Source: Planctomycetota bacterium (lineage in GTDB: Bacteria > Planctomycetota > UBA1135 > UBA2386). From it: a DNA stretch of 64,000 nt. Each line of letters starts with the position of its first letter. The stretch's first letter is position 1. Both the position numbers and the translations under genes were made by a program. Location of the stretch: contig OZ245006.1 in assembly GCA_965223545.1 (NCBI GenBank), positions 6,432,001 to 6,496,000 on the forward strand. The letters are read 5' to 3'. The notes below the pieces were generated by a model that made no database searches, was not told the DNA's origin, and worked only from the letters and a program-made list of their open reading frames with translations. This document shows positions 29,174-61,024 of this stretch, in pieces.

Positions 29174-30535
29174 CTACTGCAGGAGCAGGTCGTGCCGGCC
29201 GCCCGACTCGAACGCGGCGGGTGAACCGAGCCGGAGGGCGATCGGCTGCGCGTAGGCGGTCAGGCCGATGAGGCTCGGGTTGGACGGCACCGGCAGCGTC
29301 GCCGAGCCCGGCACGCCGAGCGCCAGGCTCATCACCAGGCTGCTCAGGTCCACAGTGATCAGGCCGTAGGGCTGGATGACGACCGACGTCGGCTGCACGC
29401 CGATCAGCACGACCGCGCCGAACACGGTCGTGCGGGTCGAGGTCACCGAGAACGTCGCGCCCTGACCGGGGGCCCAGTTGGTCACCGTCATCGCGATGCG
29501 CGCCGCTTCGTACGCGCCGACGTCGGCGACCGCGTTGCGGTCGCCGTTGGCGTCGCTGACGCGGCCGCTGCCGTAGTAGTCGTTGACGCGATAGGGCAGC
29601 GTTCCGGTCCAGCCGCCCTCGATGCCGGGCGAGCCCGGCTGCAGCCGGAAGTCACCGCCGGCTGCGTTGACGAAGTTGAGCGGAGTGTTGAGGTTGGTCG
29701 GCGGCGGCGTGAAGTTGAAGTTCGAGACGCATTGCGCCGCGTAGTTGTTCATCATCACTGCCGACGCGGGCACCGAGCTGTCGGGGAAGCCGATGTTGCA
29801 GTTGACGACCGCGTTGTTGCAAATCCACTGCTGGGTGGGGTTCTGGTCGAACGAGATGCCGTGGCCACAGTCGTAGAACGTGTTGTGATACACGTAAGTG
29901 CGGTCGCCGTTGCTGCCGGTGTAGTACTGCGTGCGAATGCGGATCGCGACGCCGGATTGGTTGGTGCCGATGAAGATGTTGTCGTGCACCGCACAGTCGA
30001 ATCCGCCCCAGAGAATCACCGAGCTGTTGCAGTCCTCGAAGCGATTGTTGTGGATGTCGACGCGCCGCACCGGACTCGGGTTGATCGCGATGGCGCCGTT
30101 GCCCCACGGTGAGATCCCCGCGTTGCGGAACGTGAGGTTGGCGATCTCCAGACCGTCGGTGGCCTGGCCGTCGATCTGCAAGAAGCCCCACTGACCGTCG
30201 GCCCCGTTGAAGTCGACGATGCAGGTGGCCACGTCGCTGCCGGTGATCGCCACGTTCTTGTAGTCGGTCAGCACCAGCGCCGCGCCCGCCGAGGTCACCG
30301 GGTCCCAAAAGTCGCCCGTGGTCTGCGGGCCGTACGTCGCGGGCAGAATGTGGTAGACGGCGTCCTGGTTGGTCGTGGTCAGCCCGAACGTCAGGGTCTT
30401 GAACGGTGCGGCTTTGCTACCGGGGTTGGCATCGCTGCCGTTGGCCCCGTCGATCCAGTAGTGCGTGACCTGCGCGGGACCCACCGCGCAGGCGAGAACG
30501 GTGGCGAAGACAGAGAGGATGGCGGGCTTGAGCAT
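29174..30535 (-). CDS. Secreted right-handed parallel beta-helix (DUF1565-like) protein with C-terminal shared module
   Basis: Signal peptide; YWIDGANGSDANPGSKAAPFKTL; Asn-rich beta-helix repeats (IHNNRF, VHDNIF, VYHNTF); GDFRLQPGSPGI...DVGAYE. GGAG RBS not clearly seen. Confidence 0.8.
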   Translation of the reverse strand: MLKPAILSVFATVLACAVGPAQVTHYWIDGANGSDANPGSKAAPFKTLTFGLTTTNQDAVYHILPATYGPQTTGDFWDPVTSAGAALVLTDYKNVAITGSDVATCIVDFNGADGQWGFLQIDGQATDGLEIANLTFRNAGISPWGNGAIAINPSPVRRVDIHNNRFEDCNSSVILWGGFDCAVHDNIFIGTNQSGVAIRIRTQYYTGSNGDRTYVYHNTFYDCGHGISFDQNPTQQWICNNAVVNCNIGFPDSSVPASAVMMNNYAAQCVSNFNFTPPPTNLNTPLNFVNAAGGDFRLQPGSPGIEGGWTGTLPYRVNDYYGSGRVSDANGDRNAVADVGAYEAARIAMTVTNWAPGQGATFSVTSTRTTVFGAVVLIGVQPTSVVIQPYGLITVDLSSLVMSLALGVPGSATLPVPSNPSLIGLTAYAQPIALRLGSPAAFESGGRHDLLLQ

Positions 30536-30777
30536 GGAGTTCCTATACGGCTCGGAGGAAGGCTGGCGAGTATAGGAGAGCGCTCGCTCGCCCGCACTTG
30601 GTCGGGCGCACTGACGCCGCGACGTATTCGGCGGGCCCCGCCGCCAACCAATCGCGCTGTGTGCGATTCGGTGCTAACGGCGCAGCGGGTGCGTGGTCCC
30701 TGGTGCAAATCATCCCGGTGCGCCCTCGTTGCGCCGCTGCCCTCTTCGCACCCCTGACGCTTCCCCCCACTGTCACT

Positions 30778-33597
30778 ATGGGCAATCCCGTGCCGCGTCC
30801 GTCTCGGCGCACCCCCACAGTCGGTCTCACGCGCCTGCTGCCGAGCGGTGCAGCGCTGGCCCTCGCCGCTGGGCTCGCCGCGCAGACGACGGTCCCCGCC
30901 GGCTTCGTCGATGAGCACGTGCTCAACGCCGGGGAGTCGCCGGCGGCCCTGAAGTTCTCGCCCGCGGGCGATCTGTACTTCGCCCGCCGGATCCAAGGCG
31001 AGCTGTGGCGCGTGCCCTTCGGCCAGTGGAGCAGCCCCCGACTGCTCTACACATTCGACGTACCGAAAGACGGCAGCGGAAAGCCGGCGGCCCATCGCTC
31101 GTCGGGCCTGCGTGACTTCACGTTCAGTGCCGATGGTCGCTCGCTCTTCGTGTTCTACATGAAGAACAATCCGCGGCAGAATCGGCTGGTGCGGCTGGCG
31201 ATCGATCCAGGCAACCCCGATCGCGTGATCCCCGGCAGCGAGACCCTGCTGCTCGATCTGCCCTTCAACGGCGGCTCCGCCTCGGGCAGCCACAACGGCG
31301 GCGCCGTGGAGATCGGCAGCGACGGCATGGTCTACGTCACCACCGGTGACGGCTGGAGCGGCGGCGACAACGTCCAATCGCTGAGCACACACACCGGCAA
31401 GGTGTTTCGCGTCGCGCAGGATGGCTCGATCCCGACCGACAACCCGTTCTACGGCCAGACCTGGGGCCCGTACCGCGCGGTCTACGCGCTCGGCTGCCGC
31501 AACCCGTTCTCGATGAGCTGGAATGCGGGTGACGGTCGGCTCTACGTCAACGAGACCACGGGCACCAACAAGGGCGAGGTCTTCCGCGTCGACCGCGGCG
31601 CCAACTTCGGCCACCAGGGCTTCGGCGGGATCGGCACGTACGCGGCCGCGTGGACCAATGCATCGGCGGTGGCGCCGTTGAACACCGGCGGCGCGTGGTA
31701 CGACGGCTGGCGGTTTCAATCCGCGCAGCGGTCGTGGCCGTCGACGTACCACGGCGGCTACTTCGTCTGTCAGTGGGGAGACAACAACCAGACGCCCGGC
31801 AGCATCGTGTTCGTTCCCCCGGGCAACCGCTGGCCGCAGCCGTTCGCCGGTTCGATGAAAGCGCTCGACCCGAACGGCGCGCTGCTCAAACCGACCTGCG
31901 TGCGCGTCGGTCCCGACGGACACCTCTACTACCTGATGACGACGTACGACACCAGCCAAGGTGAAGTGCGGCGCATTCGCTACGGCGGCGGGGCCGCCGC
32001 CCAGCCGCCGGGGATGGCGCCCAACGGCGGCACCTTCACCGGCGCGACCAACGTGAGCCTGTGGTCGTCGACTCCGGGAGCCGCGATCCATTACACGATG
32101 GATGGCAGCACTCCCACGCAGAGCTCGACGCGCTACTGGGGCACCCCGTTCGTCGTCGCGAGCAGCGCGGTGGTCAAGGCGCGCGCGTTCGCCAGTGGCA
32201 TGCAGCCCAGCGCGGTCGTGCAGGCGGCGTTCACCATCAACTCGGTCACCAACGTCGCGCCGGTGGCAATCGCCGGTCCCCGGCAGACCGTCTGGCCCGT
32301 CGATCGGCTGTTTACTCTCAACGGCTCGGCCTCGTACGACCCCGACGGCTCGGCCTCGCTGTTGTCCGAGATGTGGGTGCAGGTCGCTGGGCCGCCGGTG
32401 CCCGGGTTCGACGGCGGCGACTTCGTCAGCTTCTTCACGCCGCGCCAGGTCGGGCTCTATCGCTTTCGGCTCGATGTGTGCGATCCCAGCGGCGCATGCG
32501 CCAGCGACACGGTCGACGTGGTCGTCGTGCCGTGTCTGGACGACGTTCTCGATGGACTCTCGCACCGATGGCTCTTGGATGAAGGCGGCGGGCTCCAGCG
32601 CGCGTACGACAGCTCGCCCGGCGCGATCCATGGCGCGCTGCGCGGCGGGGTCGGCAAATCGTCCTCCGGTGCATACCCGGCGAGCGCGGCGGCAATGGTG
32701 TTCGACGGTGTCGACGACCGCATCGAGCTCGGTAGCGAGTTCGACCCGAGCGGGTCGGCGCTGACGGTTGCCGCTTGGTTGAAGGCAGACGACTTCGGGG
32801 TTCCCGACGCCAGGATCCTGTCGAAGACGCGCGGTGCCAACGAGGGTGACCACCACGTCATGCTGTCGACCGTCGCCAACGGCGCGTCGACGCGCCTGCG
32901 GTTCCGCCTGAAGACGAGTGGCTGGACGGCGACGCTGGTGGCGTCGGGCGGCGGCCTGACCGCCGGCCGTTGGGTGCACGCCGCCGCCGTCTACGACGGC
33001 GCCGAGATGCGGTTGTTCCAGGACGGCGTGCTGGTCGGTCGCATGGCGAAGCAGGGCAGCATCGACTCGGACCCGAGTGTTCCCGCCGCGATCGGCAACC
33101 AACCGCTCTCGGCAGCGGGCGGCGGCCGGGCCTTCGACGGCGTGATCGACGATGTCCGCATCTACGACCGCGCGCTTTCGGTTGCCGACCTCGGCCGGCT
33201 GGCGCGGCGGTCGACGATCCTCTCGATGCCGGCGTGGTGCGGCTGTCATCGCGACCTCGGCTTTGCCAGCCCCGGCGGTGCCCAGTTGACCCTCTGTGGT
33301 GCGCAACGGCGAGGCACGCCGTGGGATCTGCGCCTGACGCAGGCGGCTCCGAACGCACCGGTGGCGCTCCTCGTCGGCCTGTTGCCGGGGGCGACGCCGG
33401 CGTTGGGCGGCACGCTGGTACCGCAGCCGCTGCTGTCGCTGATCGTCGCCCCGGCCAACGCGCGCGGCGAGCTGCTGGCCCGGCGCCTGTCGGGCTTCAT
33501 CGCGCCGACCACGTTCGTCGTGCAAGCGCTGTCGCCGGACCCCAGCGCTGCCAAGGGGTTGGCGTTCTCCAATGCGGTGCAGCTGGTGACGCGCTGA
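30778..33597 (+). CDS. Secreted PQQ-dependent sugar dehydrogenase (GSDH) + chitobiase/FN3-associated domain + PKD-like + LamG domain + C-terminal shared module
   Basis: HNGGAVEIGSDGMVYVTTGD, GSIPTDNPF, GCRNPF; PNGGTF...IHYTMDGSTPT; APVAIAG...LNGSASYDPDG; WVHAAAVYDG...FDGVIDDVRIYDRALS. Confidence 0.85.
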   Translation: MGNPVPRPSRRTPTVGLTRLLPSGAALALAAGLAAQTTVPAGFVDEHVLNAGESPAALKFSPAGDLYFARRIQGELWRVPFGQWSSPRLLYTFDVPKDGSGKPAAHRSSGLRDFTFSADGRSLFVFYMKNNPRQNRLVRLAIDPGNPDRVIPGSETLLLDLPFNGGSASGSHNGGAVEIGSDGMVYVTTGDGWSGGDNVQSLSTHTGKVFRVAQDGSIPTDNPFYGQTWGPYRAVYALGCRNPFSMSWNAGDGRLYVNETTGTNKGEVFRVDRGANFGHQGFGGIGTYAAAWTNASAVAPLNTGGAWYDGWRFQSAQRSWPSTYHGGYFVCQWGDNNQTPGSIVFVPPGNRWPQPFAGSMKALDPNGALLKPTCVRVGPDGHLYYLMTTYDTSQGEVRRIRYGGGAAAQPPGMAPNGGTFTGATNVSLWSSTPGAAIHYTMDGSTPTQSSTRYWGTPFVVASSAVVKARAFASGMQPSAVVQAAFTINSVTNVAPVAIAGPRQTVWPVDRLFTLNGSASYDPDGSASLLSEMWVQVAGPPVPGFDGGDFVSFFTPRQVGLYRFRLDVCDPSGACASDTVDVVVVPCLDDVLDGLSHRWLLDEGGGLQRAYDSSPGAIHGALRGGVGKSSSGAYPASAAAMVFDGVDDRIELGSEFDPSGSALTVAAWLKADDFGVPDARILSKTRGANEGDHHVMLSTVANGASTRLRFRLKTSGWTATLVASGGGLTAGRWVHAAAVYDGAEMRLFQDGVLVGRMAKQGSIDSDPSVPAAIGNQPLSAAGGGRAFDGVIDDVRIYDRALSVADLGRLARRSTILSMPAWCGCHRDLGFASPGGAQLTLCGAQRRGTPWDLRLTQAAPNAPVALLVGLLPGATPALGGTLVPQPLLSLIVAPANARGELLARRLSGFIAPTTFVVQALSPDPSAAKGLAFSNAVQLVTR

Positions 33598-35761: not shown

Positions 35762-37819
35762 ATGCGTCCGTTGATCGGCCTTGTTCTGTTCGCCCAAGCC
35801 ATTGGTGGTCCTTGTGTTGCACAAGATCCTCCGGCTCCCCCGGGCGGTTTCGCCGTGCAGGCGCTGCTGGACCAGGACTGGACTTGGTCGGATGGCTATC
35901 GCACGCGCTTCGATCTGCACGTGCCGGCCGTCGCGCCTCCGCCAGGCGGTTGGCCGGCTGTGACCGTACACCACGGTGCCGGCGGCGACCGCAAGCTACC
36001 GGACGTCGTGCGCGCTGCGCGTTACCTCGCCGCGGCGGGATACGTCTGCTACGCCTACGATGGGCGGGACAACGGCCAGACGCCGGCGTTGAACCCGACC
36101 TGGAGCGCGCCCCGAACGCCGGAGCGGATCTTGCTCGACCAGGCGGAGTCGCTGGGCGCGGCGCAGACGTTGATGCCGGGCGCGATCGACGGAGCGCGGT
36201 GGGCGCTGACCGGTTTCTCCGGGGGCGGGCGTCGTTCGCTTTGGGGTGCGGGGTGGTCCGGTCGGTTGCTGCCGTTGGCCGGATCGGTGGCGCACCATCC
36301 GGTGGTGTCCGCGATCGCGCCCGAGATCGCGGTGATCGACATGCCCAACACCGCCGCGCCGGGCTTGGTGCTCGCCGGCGACTTCAAGGTGAAGGGCCTG
36401 CCGCCGACCGACCCGATGATGGTGGCGCTGCAAGCCGGCGACTACCCGTCGTTCGCGGCGGCAGCGGTGACGACGTTCGACCTGCAGGCGGCTGCGCTGC
36501 TGCGGACATCGCTCGTGCCAATGCTCGGCATGTGGGCGCAGCAGGACGTCAAGATCGTCAGTGGGCCGTCGATTCGGGCGTTCATGGCGTTGCCGACGCC
36601 GGCGCCACGGCGCCTGCATCTCTCGACTGGCGGCCACGACACGGTCAAGAACGCGCACGAGCGCGACCTGCAGCAAGATCTGCGCCGACGTTGGTTCGAT
36701 CGCTTCCTCAAGGGGATCCGCAACGGCGTCGAACGCGAACCCGTCGCCGAGCTCGCCGTGCAGCCGACGACCGATGCACGCCACGCGAACTTGGCGACCA
36801 TCTGGGAGCACCGCAATGCCGGCCAGTGGCCGCCGGCGACGCAGACGATCACGGTCCGCAGCTACCTGCGCAGTGGCGGCGTCTTGCACGCCAACGCCCC
36901 GAGCACCGTGGAAGCCGGTCCCCTGCTCCAGCATCGCGTGGCACCGGGCTACGACGCGCTGAGCTACGTCGCGCAGGGCGCCGGCCTGGCGCATGCCTCC
37001 GTGCTGGCGCAGATCCCCATGGTGGCCGCGCGTTTCGATGGAGCACCGTTGCCGGCCGACACCGAGCTTCTCGGCGTTCCGCGGCTGACCCTGCACGTGT
37101 CCGACACAACCGGCCAGGCGCAGCTCACCGCGCGGCTCGGCCACGTCGACCCCGCCGGTCGCGAGACGTGGATCTGCATGGGAACGCACGGCGTGCGTTC
37201 CGCACCGGGCCAGCACACGATCGTCATCGAGCTCGACGATGTGGCGCACGTGATCCCCGCCGGCCACCGCGTTCGGGTCACCGTGCAGAACCTGGCGCTG
37301 CACCAGCCGCCGGCCGCGAGCGGACGCATCCGCTGGGTGCCGTACTTCACCGACACCGACACCACCGTGTTGATGCAGCCGGGGCAAGCAAGCCAACTGG
37401 AGCTGCCGGTGCGCGCCTACCGCGCCAACCTGCTGCCGCGACTGGCGGTGGCCTCGGCCACTGCCGGTGTGGCGCACCGCATGCAACTGCGCGGTGGTGC
37501 AGCGCGCGCCGGTGAGATCTACGCGGCCTTCTTCGGCGCCAGCGGCGAGGCCCCCGGCGTCGCGCTCCCTGGCCTGCCGCCCGCGCCACTGAACCCGGAC
37601 CCGTGGACCAGCGCGGCGATCGCCCTGCAGAACTCCGCCGCGTTCCCCAACACCCTCGGTGTGCTGGACGCGAGCGGCACCGCGACGCCCGGGGTCTACT
37701 TCACGCCGCCCGTGGCCGCGGCCTTGGTCGGGATCCGATTCACCTGCTCCGCCGCCGTCCTCTCCGGCGCGAACATCGAAGCGTTCACCGACGCCACCTC
37801 GCTGGTCATCGACCCATAA
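35762..37819 (+). CDS. Secreted CocE/NonD-like (S15-type) alpha/beta hydrolase with C-terminal shared module
   Basis: AAGGAG RBS, signal peptide, HHGAGG, YDGRDNG, TGFSGGG nucleophile elbow, TGGHD, RWFDRFLKG, PepX_C-like region (HVIPAGHRVRV). Confidence 0.8.
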   Translation: MRPLIGLVLFAQAIGGPCVAQDPPAPPGGFAVQALLDQDWTWSDGYRTRFDLHVPAVAPPPGGWPAVTVHHGAGGDRKLPDVVRAARYLAAAGYVCYAYDGRDNGQTPALNPTWSAPRTPERILLDQAESLGAAQTLMPGAIDGARWALTGFSGGGRRSLWGAGWSGRLLPLAGSVAHHPVVSAIAPEIAVIDMPNTAAPGLVLAGDFKVKGLPPTDPMMVALQAGDYPSFAAAAVTTFDLQAAALLRTSLVPMLGMWAQQDVKIVSGPSIRAFMALPTPAPRRLHLSTGGHDTVKNAHERDLQQDLRRRWFDRFLKGIRNGVEREPVAELAVQPTTDARHANLATIWEHRNAGQWPPATQTITVRSYLRSGGVLHANAPSTVEAGPLLQHRVAPGYDALSYVAQGAGLAHASVLAQIPMVAARFDGAPLPADTELLGVPRLTLHVSDTTGQAQLTARLGHVDPAGRETWICMGTHGVRSAPGQHTIVIELDDVAHVIPAGHRVRVTVQNLALHQPPAASGRIRWVPYFTDTDTTVLMQPGQASQLELPVRAYRANLLPRLAVASATAGVAHRMQLRGGAARAGEIYAAFFGASGEAPGVALPGLPPAPLNPDPWTSAAIALQNSAAFPNTLGVLDASGTATPGVYFTPPVAAALVGIRFTCSAAVLSGANIEAFTDATSLVIDP

Positions 37820-37820
37820 C

Positions 37821-40542: not shown

Positions 40543-40602
40543 GGAGGCCAGGATAGGCGAATCCAACGTCTTCGGCCGCGCGGCGTCGCGCGATCCCGGC
40601 GC

Positions 40603-47557: not shown

Positions 47558-48577
47558 ATGGCCAAGCTGGGATTCGTCGGCATCACCGCGGGAGCAGCCG
47601 CTCTCGTCTGCGCCGTGTTGGGTTCGTTCTACGCCGAGGGCGGAGCGCGCGCGCGGGTAGCCGCGCCCGCGGCGGGGGCCGGCGGTCCCGTTGACGTCTT
47701 CGAGCCGCTGCGCGGCCGTCTGACTCCGTCGCACGGCTACTTCTTCGCGGTGTCGGCCGATGAGGAGTGGCTCGCCGTCGTCCACGCAGCCGCGCCCGGC
47801 GAGCAGCATCGAGTCGTGGTGCTGCACCAGCCCACCAACAAGGTTTGGAGCGCTGCCCGCGACGAATGGCTCTTGGGGGCGATCCCGGACTGCTTCAGCG
47901 CCGACAGCCAAATGCTCGTACTCGGTCGCTTCGCCGCTCCGCTGGACCCGTCGATGAGCGCCCTGCAGTTCGTCGAGGACGCGAACGATGACATCGAGCT
48001 GGCGTTTCTGGGAATGCCCGAGATCGTGGCGGGCAGGCGTTCCGGTGCGCAAGACCGCTGGGTGAGCCTGTCGCAACGAGAAGGCGAGTTCGGCGAGCTG
48101 GCGCGCAGTGCACAGGGGGTCGTCTTCGAGGAGCGCGCCGATGGCGCCGATGAGCACAGCAAGCTGCGCATTCGGCCGCCCGGTGAGGATCGCGTCGTCG
48201 ACTACACTCCGGTGCTCGATGCCGACCGAAAGCGGCTGTTGAAGGCGGCGGCCGCGCAGCCGCCAGAGCTGGGCGCAATTCTGAAGGAGCACGCGGACAC
48301 ACCGGCAACGATGCGTCTGGCGCAGCTCGCGGTTTCGCCCGACGGCAAGACCCTGGCAGCGGTGGCGACGCTCTACCGCGGGCAAGTGGGGTTTGCCGGC
48401 CGCCGCTACGGCGTCCTGATCTCGCTCGGATCCGATCGCATCGTGGCGCAGCCGTTTGCGGACAATGTGTACGGGAAGATCGTCTGGTCGCGCGATGGGG
48501 GTGGCGTCTATTTCTACAAGCAGTCCGATGACGGAAGCGACGGCACGGTGCATCGTCTGACGATCCTTGACGACTGA
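47558..48577 (+). CDS. Hypothetical exported protein, possibly a partial TolB/WD40-like propeller
   Basis: AAGG-preceded ATG, signal peptide, motifs AVSADEEWLAV, AVSPDGKTLAA, VWSRDGGGVYF. Confidence 0.6.
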   Translation: MAKLGFVGITAGAAALVCAVLGSFYAEGGARARVAAPAAGAGGPVDVFEPLRGRLTPSHGYFFAVSADEEWLAVVHAAAPGEQHRVVVLHQPTNKVWSAARDEWLLGAIPDCFSADSQMLVLGRFAAPLDPSMSALQFVEDANDDIELAFLGMPEIVAGRRSGAQDRWVSLSQREGEFGELARSAQGVVFEERADGADEHSKLRIRPPGEDRVVDYTPVLDADRKRLLKAAAAQPPELGAILKEHADTPATMRLAQLAVSPDGKTLAAVATLYRGQVGFAGRRYGVLISLGSDRIVAQPFADNVYGKIVWSRDGGGVYFYKQSDDGSDGTVHRLTILDD

Positions 48578-50300
48578 GGATCAGAGTGTCGGACCGCCCG
48601 GCGCGACCGGGCGGCCACGGGCCCCATTCCCCGCGCGACGAGGCGGGCTCCGTATCGCGGTGACCCTGCTGTCGACCGCGGTGGCTCTGGTCGTCGCCGA
48701 GGGAGCCCTCGTGCTGCTCGACCTGCCGGCGATGCGGTCCGAGCTGCACATCGACGCCGGCGATGGCTTTGCCGACCTGCACACCGATCCCGACCCGGAG
48801 CTGTTGTGGCGGGTGCGGCCCGGGTCGTACGAAGTCGAGTCGCCGACCGGAATGCGCGGCTGGGTCCCGCGAGGTTCGGCCGGCGAGCATCGCTTTCGCA
48901 TCGCGTGTGTCGGCGACTCGAGCACCTTCGGTCTCTGGAGTCGCTACGAGGACACTTGGGGCGTCCGCGTGGAGCGCGCGCTGCAGGACCTGTGGCCCGA
49001 TCGATGCGTCGAGTCCGTGCTCTGCGCCGCGCCTGGTTACTCGAGCTTCCAGTCGGTCGCGCTCTGGCGCGCCGAGGCCGCGCCCCTGGAGCCGGCGATC
49101 ACGGTTGCCTACCTAGGTGGCTGGAACGATTTCCAGAACGCAATCGGTGCGCCGGACGCCGAGCGCGCGGCGCGGCAGAGCTCGTCGCGATTGGTCGAGC
49201 TCGGCCGCCGGTGGTTGGATTCGCGGTCGTCGCTGTCGCAAGAGGACTACGCCGCCGCGTTCCGCCGGGGGGAGTCTCCGGCGGGAGTGCGAGTGCCCCT
49301 GGCGGAGTTCGAAGGCAACCTCACCGATCTCGTCGCCGACGTGCGGGCAGCTGGTGGCGCGCTCGTTCTGGTCGTACCGCCGTTGCCCTCGGAGACTGTT
49401 CGCGCGATGCCCGCCAGCCTCGACTACCCGGCCGTAGTCCGGAGGGTCGCGCAGAGCCTGGGGGTCGCGATCGTCGACGCGGCCGCGCTGTTCGAGGACC
49501 GCGGCGAAGAGGCGTTGTTCGTCGATCGAGTGCATCCGTCGCGGCGCGGCCACGAACTCCTGGCCGCGGCGGTCGTCGAGCAGATCCGCGACGTGTGTGC
49601 TCCCGCCGAGCCGCGGCGGCCGGGTTCCGCTGCGGTAGGAGGTGTCGCGCTGTGGCGCTGCGAGCCCGAGACGATCCCGGCGTTGAGCGCGCGCAGTGTG
49701 GTCGTGCATGGGCGCGGCATCGCGAGCGGCGGGATCGAGCGGGTGTGGGTCGGTCCGCGTTGGGTCGAGCAGATCGATGTCCTCGATGACCAGCGGCTGC
49801 ATCTCACGCTGCGCCGCGGCTTGCCTCCGGGCGAACACGGAATCGAGCTCGTCTCCGGCAGGGGCCGCCAGCGCACGGCGGCGGTGCTCCAGGTGAAGGG
49901 GTTCGAGCCACCGGCGCTGGAGGTTCGGGTGGCGGACTCGACGCCGGAACGCGTTCGGCTCCACTTGCGCTGCCAGCCTCCACCGCAGTGCATGATCGCC
50001 GTTTGGCTGGCGCCCGGGTTGTCGGCGTCGCCGGCCGAGACCGCGTTTGGACCGTTCTGGCTGTCGGGTACGTCGTCGGCGCCAGCTCTGGCCCCTGGTG
50101 CCGGATTCGGCGACTACCGGCGGCTGGCGTGGCCCCGGGCGATGGCGATCAGTGGTCGCGGTGGTTTCGACGCGGTGCTCGAAGTGTCGCCATCGTCCTT
50201 GTCCGCGGACGGGACCGCGCATTTGCAGGGGTTGGTGGTCGATCTGTTCGACCCGACGATCGGCACGGTGACGGCTCGACTGCGCGTCGATACCCGGTGA
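48567..50300 (+). CDS. SGNH/GDSL hydrolase with N-terminal TM anchor, IPT/TIG-like domain and C-terminal shared-module-like region
   Basis: IACVGDSSTFG (block I), PGYSSFQ, GGWND, FVDRVHPSRRGH (DxxH). Confidence 0.85.
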   Translation: MTTEDQSVGPPGATGRPRAPFPARRGGLRIAVTLLSTAVALVVAEGALVLLDLPAMRSELHIDAGDGFADLHTDPDPELLWRVRPGSYEVESPTGMRGWVPRGSAGEHRFRIACVGDSSTFGLWSRYEDTWGVRVERALQDLWPDRCVESVLCAAPGYSSFQSVALWRAEAAPLEPAITVAYLGGWNDFQNAIGAPDAERAARQSSSRLVELGRRWLDSRSSLSQEDYAAAFRRGESPAGVRVPLAEFEGNLTDLVADVRAAGGALVLVVPPLPSETVRAMPASLDYPAVVRRVAQSLGVAIVDAAALFEDRGEEALFVDRVHPSRRGHELLAAAVVEQIRDVCAPAEPRRPGSAAVGGVALWRCEPETIPALSARSVVVHGRGIASGGIERVWVGPRWVEQIDVLDDQRLHLTLRRGLPPGEHGIELVSGRGRQRTAAVLQVKGFEPPALEVRVADSTPERVRLHLRCQPPPQCMIAVWLAPGLSASPAETAFGPFWLSGTSSAPALAPGAGFGDYRRLAWPRAMAISGRGGFDAVLEVSPSSLSADGTAHLQGLVVDLFDPTIGTVTARLRVDTR

Positions 50301-52141: not shown

Positions 52142-52795
52142 TCAGCGGACGGTCGGGACGCGCCACCCCTCGATCAAGTCGCGCTCCTGTGGCGAGTGCT
52201 TCTCGACCAAGTCGATGGCGCGGCTGCGCAGCGCGCGCACGTCCTGGACCGACAGCGGATCCGCGATCGTGGCCTCGACCGCGTCGGCGTCCGGGCCCTT
52301 GACGCCCAGCTTGACCGCACGCTTCACGGCGGCGTCGATCTGCGCCTGGCCGAGCTCTTCCGGGATGGCGGGGGGGCCGAAGAAGATCGGTGTGTCCACC
52401 AGGAAGAAGTCGCCCGGCACGATGGCGACCACCTTGCCCGACTCGAAGCCGACGTTGACCCGCTCGGCGGTCTGGCTTCCCACGTAGAGGACCGGCTCCT
52501 CGGTTTGCCGCGGAAAGACCAGGGCGGGATTGACCTCGAGAACGAGCAGCCAGCCGGACTTGTACAGCGGTGAGCCGACCCGGTAGTAGTGCGGTGCGGC
52601 CTTTTCGAGGTCGAACCGCTGGGCGGAGATCAGGGTGACCGGGCTCTTCTCGGGCTGGTCGGGGATCACCGGGATCGCCTGCGGCGCCGCGTCCTGGCAT
52701 TCGCCAGGACGGGCGGAACCGGCGATCGCGAGAGCACCCAGCAGGGCCGGGGCGAGACACAGCTTGACGCTGAGAACGTTGGATTCAGTGCTCAT
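52142..52795 (-). CDS. Hypothetical exported protein, translationally coupled to the upstream hydrolase
   Basis: Signal-like N-terminus. Starts 3 nt after the hydrolase stop, with a GGAGG that overlaps the end of that gene. Confidence 0.7.
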   Translation of the reverse strand: MSTESNVLSVKLCLAPALLGALAIAGSARPGECQDAAPQAIPVIPDQPEKSPVTLISAQRFDLEKAAPHYYRVGSPLYKSGWLLVLEVNPALVFPRQTEEPVLYVGSQTAERVNVGFESGKVVAIVPGDFFLVDTPIFFGPPAIPEELGQAQIDAAVKRAVKLGVKGPDADAVEATIADPLSVQDVRALRSRAIDLVEKHSPQERDLIEGWRVPTVR

Positions 52796-52798
52796 GGT

Positions 52799-55195
52799 CT
52801 ACCTCCCCGTCAACTCGATTTCGTCGATGCCGATGCGGGCCTGCGCCGCGCCGAAGCTTGGACCGAACTGGAACGAGATCTTCTCGACGTCGGCCAGATC
52901 CACGCCGCTGCCCTGCGACAAGAAGTCGGTCAGGCGGATGCGCGTCGTTTCCAGATCGCTGTTCCAGCCGAGGCCGACCCCGCACAGGATGTTCGACCCG
53001 CAGATCACGGTTGGGCACGCGATGTTGCGCTGGTATGGCTCGGCAATGCCACCTCCGTAGGCGCCGATGTTGATCGTGGCGGAATTGCCGTTGCCGTCGA
53101 TCAGGGACACCGAGAAGGTGTCGTTGCCCATCTGCGCGTTGGTCAGCGAGTGGCGCGTGCCCTGCGCCGCGCGGAACTGCAAGAACGCGAACCCGCGCAG
53201 GTCGCGATCACCGGTGGGCAGCGTGTAGGTCAGGTCGTAGTCGCCCGCCCCATCCACGCTGAACACTGCGCCGTGCGTGCTGTCGCCCGCGAAGCGCGCC
53301 CCCTGGGTGACCGCGGCCATGGTGTAGCCGTTGAACGGGTCGCCCGGGTTGTCGGTGAAGTCGGTGTTGTTGTCGTCCAGCATCCCCTCGGTCAGATCGA
53401 GGAGGTTGGTGGTCACCGTTGCGCCGGAGCTGGCGAGCGCGGTCGACGGGTTGGTCTCGAAGTCGTCGACGACGCGGTTGGTCCCGCTGCGGACCTGATA
53501 CATCATCTGGTTGACGATGCAGGGGTCGGCCGGCGGAACGCCGATCGGGCGGAAGGACTCGTACTGGCGCCACAGGAAGTCGCGCGCCGGCACGTTGTCC
53601 TCGAGCACGTGCTTGACGAGCGGCAGGATGTAGCCCTTGAGCATCAGGTGCGTCGTCGCCTTGCCGATCAGGCACGGACCCACTGCGAAGCGGATCGTGT
53701 TCTGATTGTGGTAGTCGTCGTGGCCGACCCCTTGGCTCGACAGCGAGTAGCGGTCGCCCTCGGCGCGGTCGTGGATCTTGAACGACTGGGCGGTGGGGGC
53801 GTTGGCGCAGCCGTTGACGTCGCTGTCCGACTGGCCCACGAACAACGCGTACGGCACGCCGTGCGGCAGCGTTCTGTTCGAGCCGCCGAAGTCCACCGGC
53901 GCGAAGCTCATGATGAGCTTGACGTCGTCGATGGTGAAGTTGTTCACCGTGTGGGTGCCCGCGAACAGGTTGTGGTAGGCGCGCACGACACCATCACCGC
54001 CGCGGCTGTGGCCGATCCAGACGATGTTGGTGTTGTCGACGTTGCCGACCAGCACTCCGCCTGAGACCTGCGGCAGGAAGGTCCAGAACTCATCGGTGTT
54101 GGTGAGGGTCGTGACCGCGGCCGTGCCCGTTCCCGGTTGCGTGTTGTTCTGGTGGCTCATCACCACGTAGCCGTAGGACGCCAGGTGGAAGCCGAGGTGG
54201 TCGTACCACTGGTAGTTGTGACCATTCCCGTGCGAGATCACGATCAGCGGCCGCGGGCCTTGCTGGGCCGCGATGTTGGCGATGTCCGTCGGGTAGTAGA
54301 TGTCCTGGCGGCCGAACGAGATGCCGGTGTTGACGATCACCTCGGTCACCGCGTGCGGGCCGTCCAGCGTCAGGTCGTGCACGACGTAGAAGCCGGACTC
54401 GCTGTCGCTGTAGCCGTCGATCAGGTCGACCCCGGGGTCGAAGTTGCCGTTTTGGTCGAAGTCCAGCACGACGTCGTAGCCGACACCGAGGTCGTCGCCG
54501 GCGTCACCGCTGAGCGTGCCAGCGTCGAGGGCGAACGAGGTCGGCGTCGCGGTGAACGCCTGTTGGGTCGAGGCGCCACGCACGTCGACCAACGACGGAT
54601 CGGCGATCCACTCGGTGCGCGTCTTGCTCGCCACCACGTACACGTCCGCGGTCTGGCCGACGATGAACGGGTGGACGGTCGGATCGACGAGCGCGGAGAC
54701 GGTCGTGCCCGCGTTGAAAGCGGCGACGTGCTCGAAGTCCGGGTAGGCGGTGAGCGGGTTGCCGGCGATGTCGAGGTTGCGGTCGGCAAACGTGAAGTCG
54801 GCGCCGTTGCTGACGTCGATTCCGTTCGGCGCCGAGGCGTCGACCACCAGGGCCACGCCGTAGATCGTGGCGCCGGCAAAGCCGGGATCCGCGGGGAGCG
54901 GAACGGTGACCGACAGCATTCCCGATGCGTCGGTGTTGCCCAGCGGCAGAACGCCGAGGGCGGGAGTGAGGCCGATCGGGACCGAGACCCCGAGGATGGT
55001 GACGGGACCGTTGCTGATGTCGAGCAACAGGGTCACGGGGGCGTTCGGTGCACCGGTGACGGAGATCACGAGGTTGTCTCCCATCAACTTGGTGACCGAC
55101 ACCCGATCGTCGAAGCGCAGATCGGCGGCCGGCAGCGTCGCGCCGAGCAGCGTCGTGGCCAGCGCCGCGCCGCGAGCCCAGGACTTGTGTAGCAA
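52799..55195 (-). CDS. Secreted alpha/beta hydrolase (chlorophyllase/dienelactone-hydrolase-like fold) with N-terminal shared module
   Basis: AAGGAG RBS + TTG start, signal peptide, ISHGNG, HLASYGYVV, GHSRGG nucleophile, FAPVD, candidate Asp (SDSDV) and His (GVGHD). Confidence 0.82.
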   Translation of the reverse strand: MLHKSWARGAALATTLLGATLPAADLRFDDRVSVTKLMGDNLVISVTGAPNAPVTLLLDISNGPVTILGVSVPIGLTPALGVLPLGNTDASGMLSVTVPLPADPGFAGATIYGVALVVDASAPNGIDVSNGADFTFADRNLDIAGNPLTAYPDFEHVAAFNAGTTVSALVDPTVHPFIVGQTADVYVVASKTRTEWIADPSLVDVRGASTQQAFTATPTSFALDAGTLSGDAGDDLGVGYDVVLDFDQNGNFDPGVDLIDGYSDSESGFYVVHDLTLDGPHAVTEVIVNTGISFGRQDIYYPTDIANIAAQQGPRPLIVISHGNGHNYQWYDHLGFHLASYGYVVMSHQNNTQPGTGTAAVTTLTNTDEFWTFLPQVSGGVLVGNVDNTNIVWIGHSRGGDGVVRAYHNLFAGTHTVNNFTIDDVKLIMSFAPVDFGGSNRTLPHGVPYALFVGQSDSDVNGCANAPTAQSFKIHDRAEGDRYSLSSQGVGHDDYHNQNTIRFAVGPCLIGKATTHLMLKGYILPLVKHVLEDNVPARDFLWRQYESFRPIGVPPADPCIVNQMMYQVRSGTNRVVDDFETNPSTALASSGATVTTNLLDLTEGMLDDNNTDFTDNPGDPFNGYTMAAVTQGARFAGDSTHGAVFSVDGAGDYDLTYTLPTGDRDLRGFAFLQFRAAQGTRHSLTNAQMGNDTFSVSLIDGNGNSATINIGAYGGGIAEPYQRNIACPTVICGSNILCGVGLGWNSDLETTRIRLTDFLSQGSGVDLADVEKISFQFGPSFGAAQARIGIDEIELTGR

Positions 55196-55395: not shown

Positions 55396-57375
55396 TCACG
55401 TGCCGGGGCGCAGCTCGATTGCGGTGGTCAGGCCCAACGCGCCGCCCGAGCTGGCGCCGAGATCGACGACCGCGCCCTGCGCGAAGACCGAGGCGTTGCT
55501 GGGCAGCGGAGTTGCGGGGACCTGCACGGACACGGCGGCGGGGGCTCCGGTCCACGGCGGGCCCGCGATCGGTTGCCATACAGACGGCACCGTCATGGAC
55601 AACAACAGCTCGCCGGCCGCGCCGGCACCGGCCATGCCCCAACCGGGCAGCAGCGTTCCGCACGGAAAGCGCGGGTCCGGTGTGGGTGCCAGCACGAGGA
55701 CCGTCGCCGATCCGGCCGACTGAGTGCCGAGCGGGTTGTCGATTCCCAAGCTCACGGTGCCACCCGGAACGGGTTGGCCGGACAAGATGGTGAGACTGCC
55801 GCTCGGGTTGACGCCGCAGCCGAACGCGACGACGCGCGCGGCCGGTGGCTCGACCGAGAACGGGTTGCCGATGGCCACCGCGCGACCCGCGGCGGTCGCC
55901 GCGGTGATGCGGACCACGCAGGCGGCCGAGGAGATCCCGCGCGGCACGACCAGCTGGTGGCGTCCGTTGTTGGGCAGCGCCGTCGCCAGCGTGGACCAGG
56001 GGCCCGTGGGGCCGGTCGTCGACAGCTCGAGATCGATGGTCGCCACCTGCCCCGCTGGCACGGCGCAGGTCCAATCGATGAACCGCACCTGGCCGCCGAG
56101 CCACACCCGGCCGTTGGTGGGCGCGGTCACGTGGGGACGCAGCGCGGTGGCCACCGAGCTCTCGGCGAAGATGCGCAATCGGTTGCGCGACGAGCCGAAC
56201 AGGCCGCCGGTGCCCTCGTCCTGGACCACCGCGAAGTCGGCGAATCCGTTGTGATCGAGGTCGACGCCGCCGCGCAGTGCCTCGCCGCGGCGCACCGCGG
56301 CGGTGCCCACCGGGGTTTCGGTGCGCAGGCTCCACGTGTTCCCGGGTTGCCAGGAGAACAGGCGGACCATGCCGTTGGCGAAGCCGAGTAGGTCGGCGTT
56401 GCCGTCGTTGTCCATGTCCACCAGCTCGCTGACCGAGTAGGTCCCGCTGGAGGGCAGGTTGCCGGTGAGCCGGACCCAACGGTTGTTCGGCGCCCAGCTC
56501 CAGACCTCGAGGCCGCCGCTGCCGCTGCGAAACGCGAGCTCGTCGGTGCCGTCGCCGTCGACGTCGCCGGCGGCCGCGGCGCGCCACGCGCTCGCCGGGA
56601 GGTTGCCCGTGGCAGCGCGGAAACCGCCCGATCCGTCGCCGAGATGGACCGCGGCGCTCTGGTGGCCGGCGACGAAGTCGAGGTGTCCGTCGCCGTTGAA
56701 GTCGGCGAACTGGAAGGTCATGTCGGAGTTTCCGCCGAGGAAGCCGAACGTCTGCGTCCACGTGCCGTCGCCCTCGTTGCGGTACACGTGCACGCCGGCG
56801 CAGCAGCCAAAGGACACCGAGCCGACATCGAGGTCGCCGTCGCCGTCGATGTCGCCGAAGTCGGTACCGAACATCCCCCAGGTCTCGCCGTTGGTGGCGA
56901 GGCCGTCGTCCCAGGGTGTCCATGCCGTTCCCGACCCATCGCCGGTGGCGACCTCGAGCAGCTGGTCGCCGAGGTCGTTGCGGGAGTAGTTGTGGTGGAT
57001 GCCGTAGCCGACATCCATGACTCCGTCGCCGTTCGCATCACCGAGCGCGAGACCGCCGTAGCCGAATCTGCCGGTCTGCACCAGCGTCCAGCCACCGGCG
57101 CCGTCCCCGAGCCACGCCGTGATGCCGTGCATCTGGGTGTTGATGAACGGCGAGCCGTGGTCGCCGACCGTGACCACGTCCGCGTGACCGTCGCCGTTGA
57201 GGTCGCCGAGCTCGAGCTCGGTGCGGCCGCCGTCCCAGCGCAACCCGGCGGCAGTGCCGGTGATCTCGGTGTAGGTCGGTTGCGCTGTTCCATCCGGGGC
57301 GAGACCGGTGGCGAGCATCGCGGTGAGGAGCACCGTCGCGCTTCCGGGTCGGGTTCGTCTACAGGTTTCGCACAC
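55396..57375 (-). CDS. Secreted FG-GAP/VCBS repeat protein with C-terminal shared module
   Basis: Repeated GDLNGDGHADV, GDANGDGVMD, GDIDGDGDLD, ADFNGDGHLD, GDVDGDGTDE, DMDNDGNADL. Start uncertain. Confidence 0.88.
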   Translation of the reverse strand: MCETCRRTRPGSATVLLTAMLATGLAPDGTAQPTYTEITGTAAGLRWDGGRTELELGDLNGDGHADVVTVGDHGSPFINTQMHGITAWLGDGAGGWTLVQTGRFGYGGLALGDANGDGVMDVGYGIHHNYSRNDLGDQLLEVATGDGSGTAWTPWDDGLATNGETWGMFGTDFGDIDGDGDLDVGSVSFGCCAGVHVYRNEGDGTWTQTFGFLGGNSDMTFQFADFNGDGHLDFVAGHQSAAVHLGDGSGGFRAATGNLPASAWRAAAAGDVDGDGTDELAFRSGSGGLEVWSWAPNNRWVRLTGNLPSSGTYSVSELVDMDNDGNADLLGFANGMVRLFSWQPGNTWSLRTETPVGTAAVRRGEALRGGVDLDHNGFADFAVVQDEGTGGLFGSSRNRLRIFAESSVATALRPHVTAPTNGRVWLGGQVRFIDWTCAVPAGQVATIDLELSTTGPTGPWSTLATALPNNGRHQLVVPRGISSAACVVRITAATAAGRAVAIGNPFSVEPPAARVVAFGCGVNPSGSLTILSGQPVPGGTVSLGIDNPLGTQSAGSATVLVLAPTPDPRFPCGTLLPGWGMAGAGAAGELLLSMTVPSVWQPIAGPPWTGAPAAVSVQVPATPLPSNASVFAQGAVVDLGASSGGALGLTTAIELRPGT

Positions 57376-58702
57376 GCCAGTTCCTCAGCTCGATGGGAAG
57401 AGAGTGATCCTGGAAACCGATGGCTCCGGAGCGCGGCCGGTCGGCGATGGGTTTGGCGTCCAGGCGCATGTCCTGCACCAGCCGGCCGTTCAAGGTCACG
57501 CGGAACGAGTCGGCCTCGCAGAGCACGTGCATGTGGTTCCACTGCCCCGCCGGCCGCGACGCATTGGTCGTCGGCGGGCCGCCCGGGATGATCCCGCCGG
57601 CATCGTGGTCGGTGAGTCGCTCTCGGTCGGGCGGCGTCGCGAAGATCTGCACTTCGATGCCGGTGGCGACCGGGCGATCCCGGTCGCCGACGTGGAAGTA
57701 GAAGCCGCTGTTGCCGCGTTCTTGCAGGCGGTACTCGAACTCGGTTTCGAACTCCGCGTACTCGCCCTCCAGCCACAGGTAGTGGTCGAAGCGCCGCCAT
57801 CCACTCTCACCCTCGCGCGGTACCAGCGCCGCGGTGCCCTCGGCCAGCTGCCAATGACCCCGAGTCGCGCAGTGAGTGGACAGCGATTCCGCCGTCAAAG
57901 GGGCAAGCCAGGCGCCGGGCGCGTCGAGCTCGAGCAGCTCCACGCGGCGGAACTGGACGGGATGGCTCTCCGACTGCAGGGAGATCGTCCCGCGGCGGAG
58001 CATGCGGTCGCGGCCGTCGGCCAGCAGGCGCTGGGCGTCGGCGTCGCCCGGATCGAGTTGGGGGTTGTCGTAGACCAACACCGTGTCGCCGAACACGAGG
58101 TGGCGGATCGTGTCGCCGCGCACGTCGATCTCGGCCGTCACCCAGTCGTCGCCCCGGAACGTCGCCGAGGACGAATCGAGACAGTGCGGCGTCCACAGCG
58201 CACCGTCGCGGACCACGTGGGTGCCGGGGGTGCAGAGGTTGGCGGTCGGCCGCTCGCCCTCGGCGCGTCCGCCGAGCAGCTGCACCTCGATCGATGCAGG
58301 GAACTCCTGGTCCACGGCCATCGACGCCGGCGTTTGGCCGTGCACCATCACGCCGCTGTTGCGGAACGCCCAGCCCGGCCCGCCCTCGACCTGGTCGCCG
58401 GTGAAGCGGTACTCGACCCGCAGCCGGTAGTGGTCGAGCTCGGTCTCGTAGAAGAGGTGGCCAAAGCGACCGTCGAACTGCTCGTAGGCGTCGTAGGCCA
58501 CGGTGAGCAGCCCGTCGACGACGCGGAAGGTATCGCCGAAGTTCTCACCGACCGGATGGCCGGTGATCTTGGCAGTCCAGCCGGTGAGGTCGCGGCCGTT
58601 GAACAACGGGCGCCAGGAGTTGGCTTCCTGGGTCGGGGTGGGTGATAGGGCGGTGGCGATGACCAGAACGGAGATCGAGGCCGTGCGGACCCGTCGTGTC
58701 AT
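57359..58702 (-). CDS. Tandem DUF1080 (3-keto-disaccharide hydrolase-like) protein
   Basis: WRPLFNGRDLTGW, RNSGV, SLQSESHPVQFRRVEL; second domain GNSG, GIEVQI, GQWN, IGFQDH, LRN. Confidence 0.88.
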   Translation of the reverse strand: MTRRVRTASISVLVIATALSPTPTQEANSWRPLFNGRDLTGWTAKITGHPVGENFGDTFRVVDGLLTVAYDAYEQFDGRFGHLFYETELDHYRLRVEYRFTGDQVEGGPGWAFRNSGVMVHGQTPASMAVDQEFPASIEVQLLGGRAEGERPTANLCTPGTHVVRDGALWTPHCLDSSSATFRGDDWVTAEIDVRGDTIRHLVFGDTVLVYDNPQLDPGDADAQRLLADGRDRMLRRGTISLQSESHPVQFRRVELLELDAPGAWLAPLTAESLSTHCATRGHWQLAEGTAALVPREGESGWRRFDHYLWLEGEYAEFETEFEYRLQERGNSGFYFHVGDRDRPVATGIEVQIFATPPDRERLTDHDAGGIIPGGPPTTNASRPAGQWNHMHVLCEADSFRVTLNGRLVQDMRLDAKPIADRPRSGAIGFQDHSLPIELRNWRVRNL

Positions 58703-58771
58703 GAACTCCAGGCTACCCGACTCCGGAAGCGTTGCGACCCGCCGCCCTCGGCCGGGCGGAACGGGCGAGCT

Positions 58772-61024
58772 TCAGTGTGGACCGATCGTCAAAGCGAGCG
58801 CGTGCGTGCTGAGGACGCCCGCGGGGTTGGCGATGGGTACCAACTCGAACGCCTGCGCGTAGACCGTCGCTCCGACGAGGCTGGCGCTGGCCGGCAGGGG
58901 CGCGCCCCACAGAGCGCGTCCGTTGGCGCTGGCGAACCCGACGGCCGTCTCGGCGCTGTGGTAGAGCCAGCATCCCGGCATGCCGGCGAAGCCGAGGGCG
59001 AGTGGCAAGGGGACAGTGCCGAGAAGGCGGCTCGAGAGTCCCAGCGCGATGGCGCCGGTGGAGACTCCGGATTGCAGCGAGGTCAACGCGAGGACGAGCG
59101 TCTCGCCGATTGCCGGAACTTGCGGACTTGGCACCTCGATGCGCGGCGCGCGTCCGAGGACTCCGCAGCCGGCGCCAAACGGTGCGACGGCTCCTCCGCG
59201 GTAGACCCAGGTGTCGTTGAGCTCGCCCTCGGGCTCCCCGCTGTGTCCGCCGCACATCACGATCTGGCCAGTGCCGTTGCTGGAAGCCGCGGCGTGGTCG
59301 CGCCGCGGACCGACGCCGAGGCGCAAGGCCATCCGCGTCCACGTCGAGCCGTCCAGCTCCCAGACGTCGCCGAGGGGGGCTCCGCCGGCTTCGCCAAAGG
59401 CGAGAACGATCCGGCCGCGACCGTAGTCGTAGGTCAGGCTGTGTCCGGCACGCGCCGGAGGTGTGACGGGGGAGAGGACGCTGAGCCAGGTCGTGCCATT
59501 CCACTCCCACGTGTCGCTGAGCCAGCGCGTCGCGGTCCGCCCGCCGAACAGCACGACGCGCCCGCGCAGGGGATCGGAGACCATGGCGTGGCCGACGCGT
59601 CCCGCCGGCGCGTTGGCGGGCTGCAGCGCGGTCCAGGCAGTGCCGTCATAGGCCCAGGTGTCGCCGATCAGGCCGTTGTCTCCACCGAACAGGAGCAGCC
59701 GCTGGCCGACGGGTTCGTGAGCCATCGCCGCTTGCGCTCTCGGCGATGGGCTGGTTGCGGTCACGATTGCGCGCCAGTTGGTGCCATCCCATTCCCAGGT
59801 GTCGTTCTGCAGCCCACCGCGGACCGAGCCCCCGAACACGACCACTCGATCGCGGGTGAAGTCGGTGGCCATGGCGTGACCGAAGCGCGCCGCCGGTCGG
59901 CTTGCCGGCTGCGCCAGCGACCAGGCGCGGTCGCGCCAGATCCAGGTGTCGTCGTAGCGCACAAAGCGCGCCCCAGTGACGTTGTAGTGTTGCCCGCCGA
60001 ACAGAATGGCGTCGCCGCCCGCGGTCGCTGCCATCGCCGCCATCGCTACTCCGTCGCCGGGCAGCATCTGGAGTCCCGATGGGGGGGCGCTGGCGCGGCT
60101 CCAGTTGGTGCCGTCCCAATCCCAAGTCTCATTCGACTTGATCAGGTTGCCATCGAGCCCGCCGAAGAGAACGACTCGGCCCCGAACCTCATCGTAGGCG
60201 AGGGCTGCGCTGGTCAGAGCCGGTGGTCGATTCGCCGTCGTGCGCAGGGACCACTGGCTGCCGTTCCACTCCCAGGTGTCGCCGAGCGGAGTCGACGTGC
60301 CGCCACCGCCGTAGACCACGACGCGCTGGCGCCGGCGGTCGTAGGCGATCCCATGTCCGCTGCGGGGAGCAGAGGCCGGCGCCGATGCGCGTTGGCTCCA
60401 GGTCGTACCGTCCCACTCCCATGTCTGTCGCTGGCCGAACAGCACGACTCGCTGTCGCGCGGCGTCGTAGGCCATGGCGTGCTTGCGCATCGCCGGCGGG
60501 CTCACGGTGGGGATGTGCTGAGTCCATTGCGCCCCGTCCCACTCCCACGTGTCGGCGAGCGGCGAGAACCAGTTGCCGCCGAACAGCACCGTCCGTCCCC
60601 GTGCCTCGTCGAAAGCCATCGCGTGCTCCTGGCGCTGCTCCGGCGTCGTGGCCGGAGACTTTCTCTCCCAGGCGAGGCCATCCCATTCCCAGGTCTCAGT
60701 GGAACCGACGGTCCCGCCGAACAGGACCAGCCGCCCGCGGTTCCGGTCGTAGGCGATGGCCGGTTCGCGGCGTGGCCTCGGGCTGCCCGCCGCATCGGCG
60801 AGGCGCATCCAGCGTCGACCGCTCCACTCCCAGACATCGCCGAGATCGAAGCCGGAGCGAGCGTGCCCACCGAACACGATCGCTCGGCCGCGGTTGCTGT
60901 CGTAAGCCATGGCGTGCAGCCAGCGGCCCTCGATCGACAGGCCATGGTCCCATGTCGTTTGACTAACGACGCTCGCGGCGCAGAGCAAGAACGCCGCGAG
61001 GTCCCGAATCCTCGCGCAGGTCAT
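58772..61024 (-). CDS. Secreted Kelch-repeat (DTWEWDG-type) beta-propeller protein with C-terminal shared module
   Basis: About 11 repeats of R-x-GH-AMAYD-xxR-xx-VVLFGG...DTWEWDG-xxW; signal peptide ending VVSQ. Confidence 0.88.
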   Translation of the reverse strand: MTCARIRDLAAFLLCAASVVSQTTWDHGLSIEGRWLHAMAYDSNRGRAIVFGGHARSGFDLGDVWEWSGRRWMRLADAAGSPRPRREPAIAYDRNRGRLVLFGGTVGSTETWEWDGLAWERKSPATTPEQRQEHAMAFDEARGRTVLFGGNWFSPLADTWEWDGAQWTQHIPTVSPPAMRKHAMAYDAARQRVVLFGQRQTWEWDGTTWSQRASAPASAPRSGHGIAYDRRRQRVVVYGGGGTSTPLGDTWEWNGSQWSLRTTANRPPALTSAALAYDEVRGRVVLFGGLDGNLIKSNETWDWDGTNWSRASAPPSGLQMLPGDGVAMAAMAATAGGDAILFGGQHYNVTGARFVRYDDTWIWRDRAWSLAQPASRPAARFGHAMATDFTRDRVVVFGGSVRGGLQNDTWEWDGTNWRAIVTATSPSPRAQAAMAHEPVGQRLLLFGGDNGLIGDTWAYDGTAWTALQPANAPAGRVGHAMVSDPLRGRVVLFGGRTATRWLSDTWEWNGTTWLSVLSPVTPPARAGHSLTYDYGRGRIVLAFGEAGGAPLGDVWELDGSTWTRMALRLGVGPRRDHAAASSNGTGQIVMCGGHSGEPEGELNDTWVYRGGAVAPFGAGCGVLGRAPRIEVPSPQVPAIGETLVLALTSLQSGVSTGAIALGLSSRLLGTVPLPLALGFAGMPGCWLYHSAETAVGFASANGRALWGAPLPASASLVGATVYAQAFELVPIANPAGVLSTHALALTIGPH

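Follow-up and report, generated by a model that had tools for sequence, protein, structure and literature searches.

A terminal module shared by unrelated exported proteins of a Planctomycetota bacterium and its alternation with dockerin

A stretch of 64,000 nucleotides from a Planctomycetota genome (assembly GCA_965223545.1, contig OZ245006.1, positions 6,432,001 to 6,496,000), analyzed here as a whole and referred to as the window, encodes seven proteins with mutually unrelated cores (beta-helix, GSDH-LamG, CocE/PepX, SGNH, alpha/beta hydrolase, FG-GAP, and Kelch) that nevertheless carry similar segments at one terminus. An earlier note on this DNA had proposed that these segments are copies of one module, which would tag unrelated exported cargo in a lineage-specific manner, and the locus thus raises the question of what this module is and what it does for the proteins that carry it. 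We report that the module represents a real domain family without a catalogue entry, and that module and dockerin are exchanged both on individual proteins and across entire genomes; the proposal of a lineage-specific tag is supported by these data. We give roughly even chances to the reading that the module is an uncleaved, dockerin-like handle, which retains exported proteins on the cell surface via a partner that sets the tag type. The alternation of the module with dockerin is the new element of this analysis.

A domain family on unrelated exported proteins

The seven open reading frames and their segments were confirmed at the coordinates proposed for them, and the segments are weakly alike when compared pairwise, with best phmmer E values of 2e-5 to 7e-4 (kelch, hydrolase, beta-helix, and GSDH copies). 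The kelch tail served as seed for a hidden Markov model (HMM), which was iterated on the 8.1-Mb genome minus the window; it converged on 305 open reading frames elsewhere in the genome, 270 of which end in the module no more than 10 residues from the stop, and reversed decoys gave no match at E<=10. A shared module on unrelated exported proteins is thereby borne out, and five of the seven window segments are scored by this window-free HMM (kelch, hydrolase, GSDH-LamG, beta-helix, and FG-GAP; E values in Table 1). The CocE tail is not matched by the kelch-seeded main HMM; as a jackhmmer seed it recruits a subtype of 36 proteins, 12 of which the main HMM also matches, and this subtype aligns with the main profile at an hhalign probability of 90% (E 1.5e-6). 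The SGNH tail, which had already been named as the weakest match, has no direct significant match to the module (hhalign 0.9%); two homologous tails from relatives score 25.9 and 21.1 bits against the module HMM, which suggests that the SGNH tail is probably a degenerate copy. The claim that all seven segments carry the module therefore stands for six, one of them via a subtype, and is linked for SGNH via homologues only. As had also been claimed, no cytoplasmic gene of the window matches the module HMM.

Module copies are 110-140 residues long with a median pairwise identity of 27%, and conservation is seen at a pair of Cys, at a number of Gly and Pro, at one Gln (96%), and at Ser/Thr-Asn preceding the last strand; the motif drawn up in the earlier note omits the Cys pair, which is part of the family signature. 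Both Cys are present in 186 copies, neither in 51, and only one in 12; the two thus co-vary in 237 of 249 copies, which points to a disulfide. AlphaFold models the kelch module as an eight-stranded sandwich with no helix at a predicted local distance difference test score (pLDDT) of 97, so that the predicted fold is a disulfide-stapled immunoglobulin (Ig)-like beta-sandwich. Foldseek returned no structural match to this model at E<=1e-3; its best rows, lipid-binding ML domains, were rejected as weak (E>1e-3, TM-score 0.3-0.4). Structural alignment with VIA-align gave only generic Ig and macroglobulin rows, the best of which (Z 8.3 for both A2M and TEP1r, the latter with a root-mean-square deviation of 3.3 A over 107 residues) are macroglobulin domains of thioester proteins; these scores are tied with those of many Ig domains and identities among the top rows are 7-14%, so that macroglobulin and Ig/Fn3 domains share the fold only. 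The module is low in charge and rich in Leu and Pro, with 4.2% Asp plus Glu and 0.2% Lys versus 10.6% and 0.6% in the cargo.

No match to the module was obtained in Pfam, NCBIfam, or PDB sequences, so that the module was not traced to any domain already characterised there, and no account of it was found in the open-access full text searched (main articles, no supplements). In the ESM Atlas, 30 Planctomycetota clusters were retrieved that have no Pfam family common to them; the commonest taxa of the clusters shown are Planctomycetota, as are three named relatives. A library of representatives at 50% identity yielded 30,631 matches at E<=1e-3.

To describe deployment in the genome, we used 5722 genes from our own caller and a signal-peptide heuristic of our own. 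By the union of profiles, 398 of the 5722 genes are carriers, and weaker copies persist among presumed non-carriers; a profile of the module would thus label about 7% of genes in such genomes as probable surface cargo. Every carrier counted (386/386) has a single copy. A heuristic signal peptide together with Gln is found in 264 of 346 carriers versus 766 of 4651 other proteins, and among exported proteins a lipobox call was made for one of 224 carriers, where inspection showed it to be false, versus 106 of 749 others. Among 362 copies with an assigned position, 321 are C-terminal (no more than 20 residues from the end), 26 lie 21-60 residues from the end, and 15 are N-terminal or internal; at least 11 proteins consist of a signal peptide and a module with nothing else. 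The scan proposed in the earlier note thus yielded what it had anticipated, namely many copies per genome, a terminal bias, and enrichment in signal peptides. Some carriers also have choice-of-anchor domains, including the passenger domain NF058597, which scored above its cut-off.

One carrier with a trailing segment after the module was folded (pLDDT 76). Single jelly-roll domains align with this model over residues 1-340 and Ig domains over about residues 175-301; since the jelly-roll matches span the Ig matches, the prediction places the module within a jelly-roll domain of the cargo. A sequence test for the displaced strand in the inserted type was not significant, and the insertion claim rests on the predicted model. 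A role as a cleaved C-terminal signal is unlikely because stand-alone copies exist and the module can also sit within a jelly-roll domain, where a terminal signal removed by cleavage would be unable to function; these copies, the N-terminal ones, and the exchange with dockerin described below all favor a docking domain, as had been suggested.

As an observation on exported proteins at large, Gln very often stands directly after the predicted signal peptide throughout the genome (1030 proteins by our heuristic, carriers and non-carriers alike; examples in the window are 9999-11549, 27381-29168, and 50374-52044). This pattern recalls the Q-rule of Bacteroidetes (PMC5837995).

Exchange with dockerin on single proteins and across genomes

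In homologous cargo proteins, a given slot can be filled by the module or by a dockerin. One conserved carrier, a beta-helix protein encoded beside a TonB-dependent receptor, was used as a query with its passenger region only; among its best 120 homologues (52-78% identity, the query itself apart), the HMM recognises a type I module as the tail of 32 and the motif marks 19 tails as dockerin-like; 7 homologues have a short tail, and the remaining 62 tails are, by eye, mostly type II modules and further dockerins. PF00404 matched 10 of these 120 rows. For the alpha/beta hydrolase of the window, 87 of 120 homologues have an N-terminal module, and 5 have a dockerin in this N-terminal slot (2 by motif, 3 by eye, one of the 3 with PF00404); a further 12 instead have a short acidic tail of another kind at their end, and one of these 12 is named as Acidobacteriota. 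Module and dockerin thus fill the same slot on homologous cargo, at either terminus.

Two further tails were observed among homologues of the receptor-adjacent protein. An unannotated tail of about 105 residues, which may be another tag, occupies the same slot in P0040, P0052, P0062, P0094, and P0118, as well as L165 and L166. The longer homologues P0002, P0005, and P0007 have a short C-terminal tail there with a conserved Val, a Trp, and a final aromatic residue.

Across genomes, the module was found in 40 of the 41 genomes of the order and in 66 of 301 Planctomycetota genomes, 61 of which are module-rich. A second type of module (type II), homologous to type I at 91% probability, has 145 matches in genome G033 and none in the present genome (G000, 91% complete), G025, G027, or G031; each of these genomes relies mainly on one version. 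Dockerin-rich genomes, defined by at least 10 matches among at most 20 scored candidates, number 33 of 301, and none of them is among the 61 module-rich genomes, in which dockerin matches reach at most 5.

G027 is the sole genome of the 41 in the order in which no module was found, and it has 39 dockerin matches versus 0-2 in 20 relatives. In a GatB tree, G027 is sister to the module-rich G031 (support 100/97) within a clade that includes G025 and G033 (97/94); dockerin proteins are also encoded on the contig that holds the G027 GatB gene, and GC content is uniform across 20 stretches. In G027, the receptor-adjacent protein terminates with a cassette made up of an Ig part and a dockerin. The Ig part of this cassette was considered as a relative of the module and found to be unrelated to it. 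In 289 kb of G027, we found 32 dockerin cassette rows, one of which is a duplicate; 13 distinct dockerin proteins have a match in the present genome, and for 8 of these 13 the best match is a module carrier, covering four cargo families. As a control, 4 of 95 other G027 open reading frames have a carrier as best match, and two of these 4 themselves have dockerin-like tails. The dockerin swap links the module to the question of what non-cellulosomal dockerins do in Planctomycetota; moreover, the close pair G027 and G031, which differ in tag, should differ in receptor, and hence allows for a direct test.

Candidate function, partner, and export route

Like dockerin type I (PF00404), the module is present once on each exported carrier, usually at the C-terminus and in some cases at the N-terminus; both have many copies per genome and are used in the same slot on the same cargo. 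The module differs in that it is predicted to be all-beta with a Cys pair and is unrelated in sequence, whereas dockerin consists of calcium-binding helical repeats; furthermore, module and dockerin are not expanded in the same genomes, and PF00404 matched neither the window proteins nor any protein of G000. Cohesin (PF00963) gave no match in G000, in G027, or in G196, a 2.3-Mb carrier genome outside the order, and 2 matches each in G093 and G061, with a matching control. By analogy, the module would work like a non-cellulosomal dockerin, and is not a member of the dockerin family. PMC6461901 proposes, as an untested idea, a cohesin-dockerin surface complex ("planctosome") in freshwater Nemodlikiaceae, and the term "secretion" was not found in passages of 10.1101/817700 and 10.64898/2026.10.26.761892. 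The cohesin matches in the dockerin-rich G093 (L171:1300-2745) and G061 (L173:1216-2661) are on proteins that also end in dockerin, and these look like adaptors rather than cell anchors. Of the analogies initially drawn, the C-terminal domains of the type IX secretion system (T9SS) and PEP-CTERM are not supported as equals of dockerin, given that no PorV was found in 5 genomes, no exosortase in the present one, and no transmembrane tail on the module, and that no free C-terminus is needed. PEP-CTERM, GlyGly-CTERM, and MYXO-CTERM are likewise many-to-one terminal tags on surface cargo, with choice-of-anchor passengers also found on some module carriers, but those tags combine a short motif, a membrane helix, and a basic tail and are cut by a sortase, whereas the module folds as a domain and has no such helix. 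Exosortase (PF09721) has no match in G000 and G196 and is present in G011 and G031.

If the module is a surface handle, its cargo would cross the inner membrane by Sec and be cleaved by signal peptidase I, the Cys pair would oxidise in the periplasm, folded cargo would leave through the general type II secretion system (T2SS) encoded by carrier genomes, and the module would then bind a lineage-specific envelope receptor or scaffold non-covalently. Surface location, export route, and binding are all inferred here, as is a single receptor per lineage, which would follow because each genome mostly uses one tag type on all its cargo. A gspD-E-F-G-H-I-J cluster is present in G000 and G196, and the secretin GspD is also present in G027; since G027 is without the module, the T2SS is a possible exit route that is not tag-specific. 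More tentatively, and with somewhat worse than even prospects, one may envisage that a large branch of Planctomycetota presents enzymes and adhesins, hundreds in number, on its surface via a plug (the module) and a socket (an outer-surface scaffold), interchangeable with dockerin, and that a lineage can recode its whole exoproteome between tags, as G027 would have done. A small, position-independent display tag could serve protein engineering.

A number of observations weigh against a surface handle with a protein partner. A comparison of G000 with G196 left 256 shared candidate envelope proteins, 156 of which were scanned against Pfam, and gave no specific candidate; gene neighborhoods of carriers likewise showed no recurring family. 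The G027 dockerins are also without a Pfam cohesin, and hence the analogy may not mean protein-protein docking. With regard to location, there is one true lipoprotein among the wider set of carriers, the SGNH enzyme with its module copy is probably membrane-anchored, and some cargo, namely di-heme peroxidases and a copper oxidase, could be periplasmic. With regard to the exchange, dockerin counts in the 301-genome survey draw on no more than 20 scored candidates from each genome, mutual exclusion across the phylum runs along lineages and therefore does not amount to 301 independent tests, the sole independent genome contrast is one metagenome-assembled genome (G027) placed on a one-gene tree, and 5 of the 8 matched G027 dockerin proteins share one carrier as best match.

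The envelope proteins shared by G000 and G196 comprise general machinery along with some proteins that have no annotation. GspD, a rhomboid, and a 701-residue neighbor in the T2SS cluster were considered as partners and rejected, as all three persist in G027 and so were not lost together with the module. For the large lipoproteins of G196, no clear counterpart was seen in G000, and a search of 825 exported non-carriers of G000 for a scaffold built of tandem unknown domains gave none. Two further clusters are conserved between these genomes (C1:1835390-1851773 and C1:7078860-7090901 in G000; L058 and L048 in G196), with pseudopilins and a 1,700-residue unannotated protein, and with paired secretin-like proteins and ExbBD/TolQR-like genes.

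Among the alternatives to a surface handle, the module could be a folded, uncleaved export signal that is read by the T2SS or another outer-membrane exit and decides what leaves the periplasm, not attachment. The gsp cluster of G000 and G196 would provide the reader, a single tag per protein, exclusion from lipoproteins, and homogeneity per genome also fit a secretion code, and other sorting tags depend on the T2SS, according to 10.1101/2023.06.07.544157. We nevertheless regard an export signal as rather unlikely: GspD is kept in G027, which is without the module, stand-alone module proteins would export a tag alone, and the dockerin that replaces the module is generally known as a binding module. 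The module could also be partner-free, binding lipid, lipopolysaccharide, or a surface glycan directly or self-associating into a coat; its low charge and richness in Leu and Pro, the ML domains in the best Foldseek rows, the receptor search without result, and the lack of a cohesin match in G027 all fit. However, the ML matches are weak, as described above, carbohydrate-binding modules are generally known to occur often in tandem whereas the module never does, and a protein receptor would more readily account for the turnover of tag type across whole genomes, such that a partner-free module appears unlikely. Finally, a T9SS-type C-terminal signal, which a sortase-like enzyme from a distant relative of the T9SS would cut, is highly improbable, as the resemblance to the C-terminal domains of Bacteroidota (Por_Secre_tail, PF18962: an Ig-like sandwich found C-terminally on many proteins with signal peptides), the predominantly C-terminal position, and the signal peptides followed by Gln are set against the lack of a sequence match, a greater length, the N-terminal, inserted, and stand-alone copies (41 of 362 lie more than 20 residues from the end), the failure to find PorV in 5 genomes with a matching positive control, and the lack of any match to Por_Secre_tail/PF18962 or NCBIfam T9SS tails on window proteins or isolated modules. 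SprA was also not matched in 5 genomes, with an equally silent positive control, and the positive control was silent in the genome-wide PF18962 search too.

Features of the window

The coordinates of the seven carriers and their modules are listed in Table 1.

Table 1. Carrier proteins and module copies in the window
Feature	Position	Strand	Remarks
Beta-helix protein, exported, 453 residues, DUF1565/NosD-like	29174..30535	-	Weak choice-of-anchor Q match directly before module
Module of beta-helix protein, C-terminal, type I	29174..29503	-	E 5e-4 (HMM built without window); 9.6e-7 with broadened HMM
GSDH-Fn3-PKD-LamG protein, exported, 939 residues counted from ATG at 30778	30778..33597	+	
Module of GSDH-LamG protein, C-terminal, type I	33220..33597	+	E 1.2e-6
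CocE/PepX_C hydrolase, exported	35762..37819	+	Start set by eye at signal peptide
Module of CocE, C-terminal, subtype III without Gln	37442..37819	+	jackhmmer family of 36; hhalign 90%
SGNH hydrolase, predicted N-terminal membrane anchor	48567..50300	+	
SGNH tail, probable degenerate module	49890..50300	+	Linked via homologous tails only
Alpha/beta hydrolase, exported, 798 residues	52799..55195	-	
Module of alpha/beta hydrolase, N-terminal, after signal peptide	54782..55087	-	E 4.7e-12; residues 37-138; dockerin in slot of some homologues
FG-GAP propeller protein, exported	55396..57375	-	
Module of FG-GAP protein, C-terminal, diverged type I	55396..55857	-	E 0.026, later 0.002; hhalign E 3.5e-4
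Kelch propeller protein, exported, 750 residues	58772..61024	-	
Module of Kelch protein, canonical C-terminal type I with Cys pair	58772..59194	-	E 8.5e-20; AlphaFold pLDDT 97 (copy that was folded)

Just downstream of the alpha/beta hydrolase gene, a small exported protein is encoded at 52142-52795 (minus strand); it is 35% identical over 170 residues (E 1e-23) to an N-terminal domain fused to the hydrolase in homologues of the P0283 type, and this homology to a fused domain therefore suggests that the small protein is a conserved partner of the hydrolase. An exported protein of 892 residues at 37888-40566 (minus strand) has no Pfam match and no module; its Trp-x-Gly-His-Cys-His motif recalls transglutaminase-like enzymes. 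Prepilin-like N-termini were noted by eye at 19419-22814 and 9284-9961 (both minus strand; one protein has 1131 residues), away from any complete pilus cluster. Finally, three tandem repeats of 195 bp with 94% identity are located at 5270-5859, upstream of a large glycosyltransferase gene.

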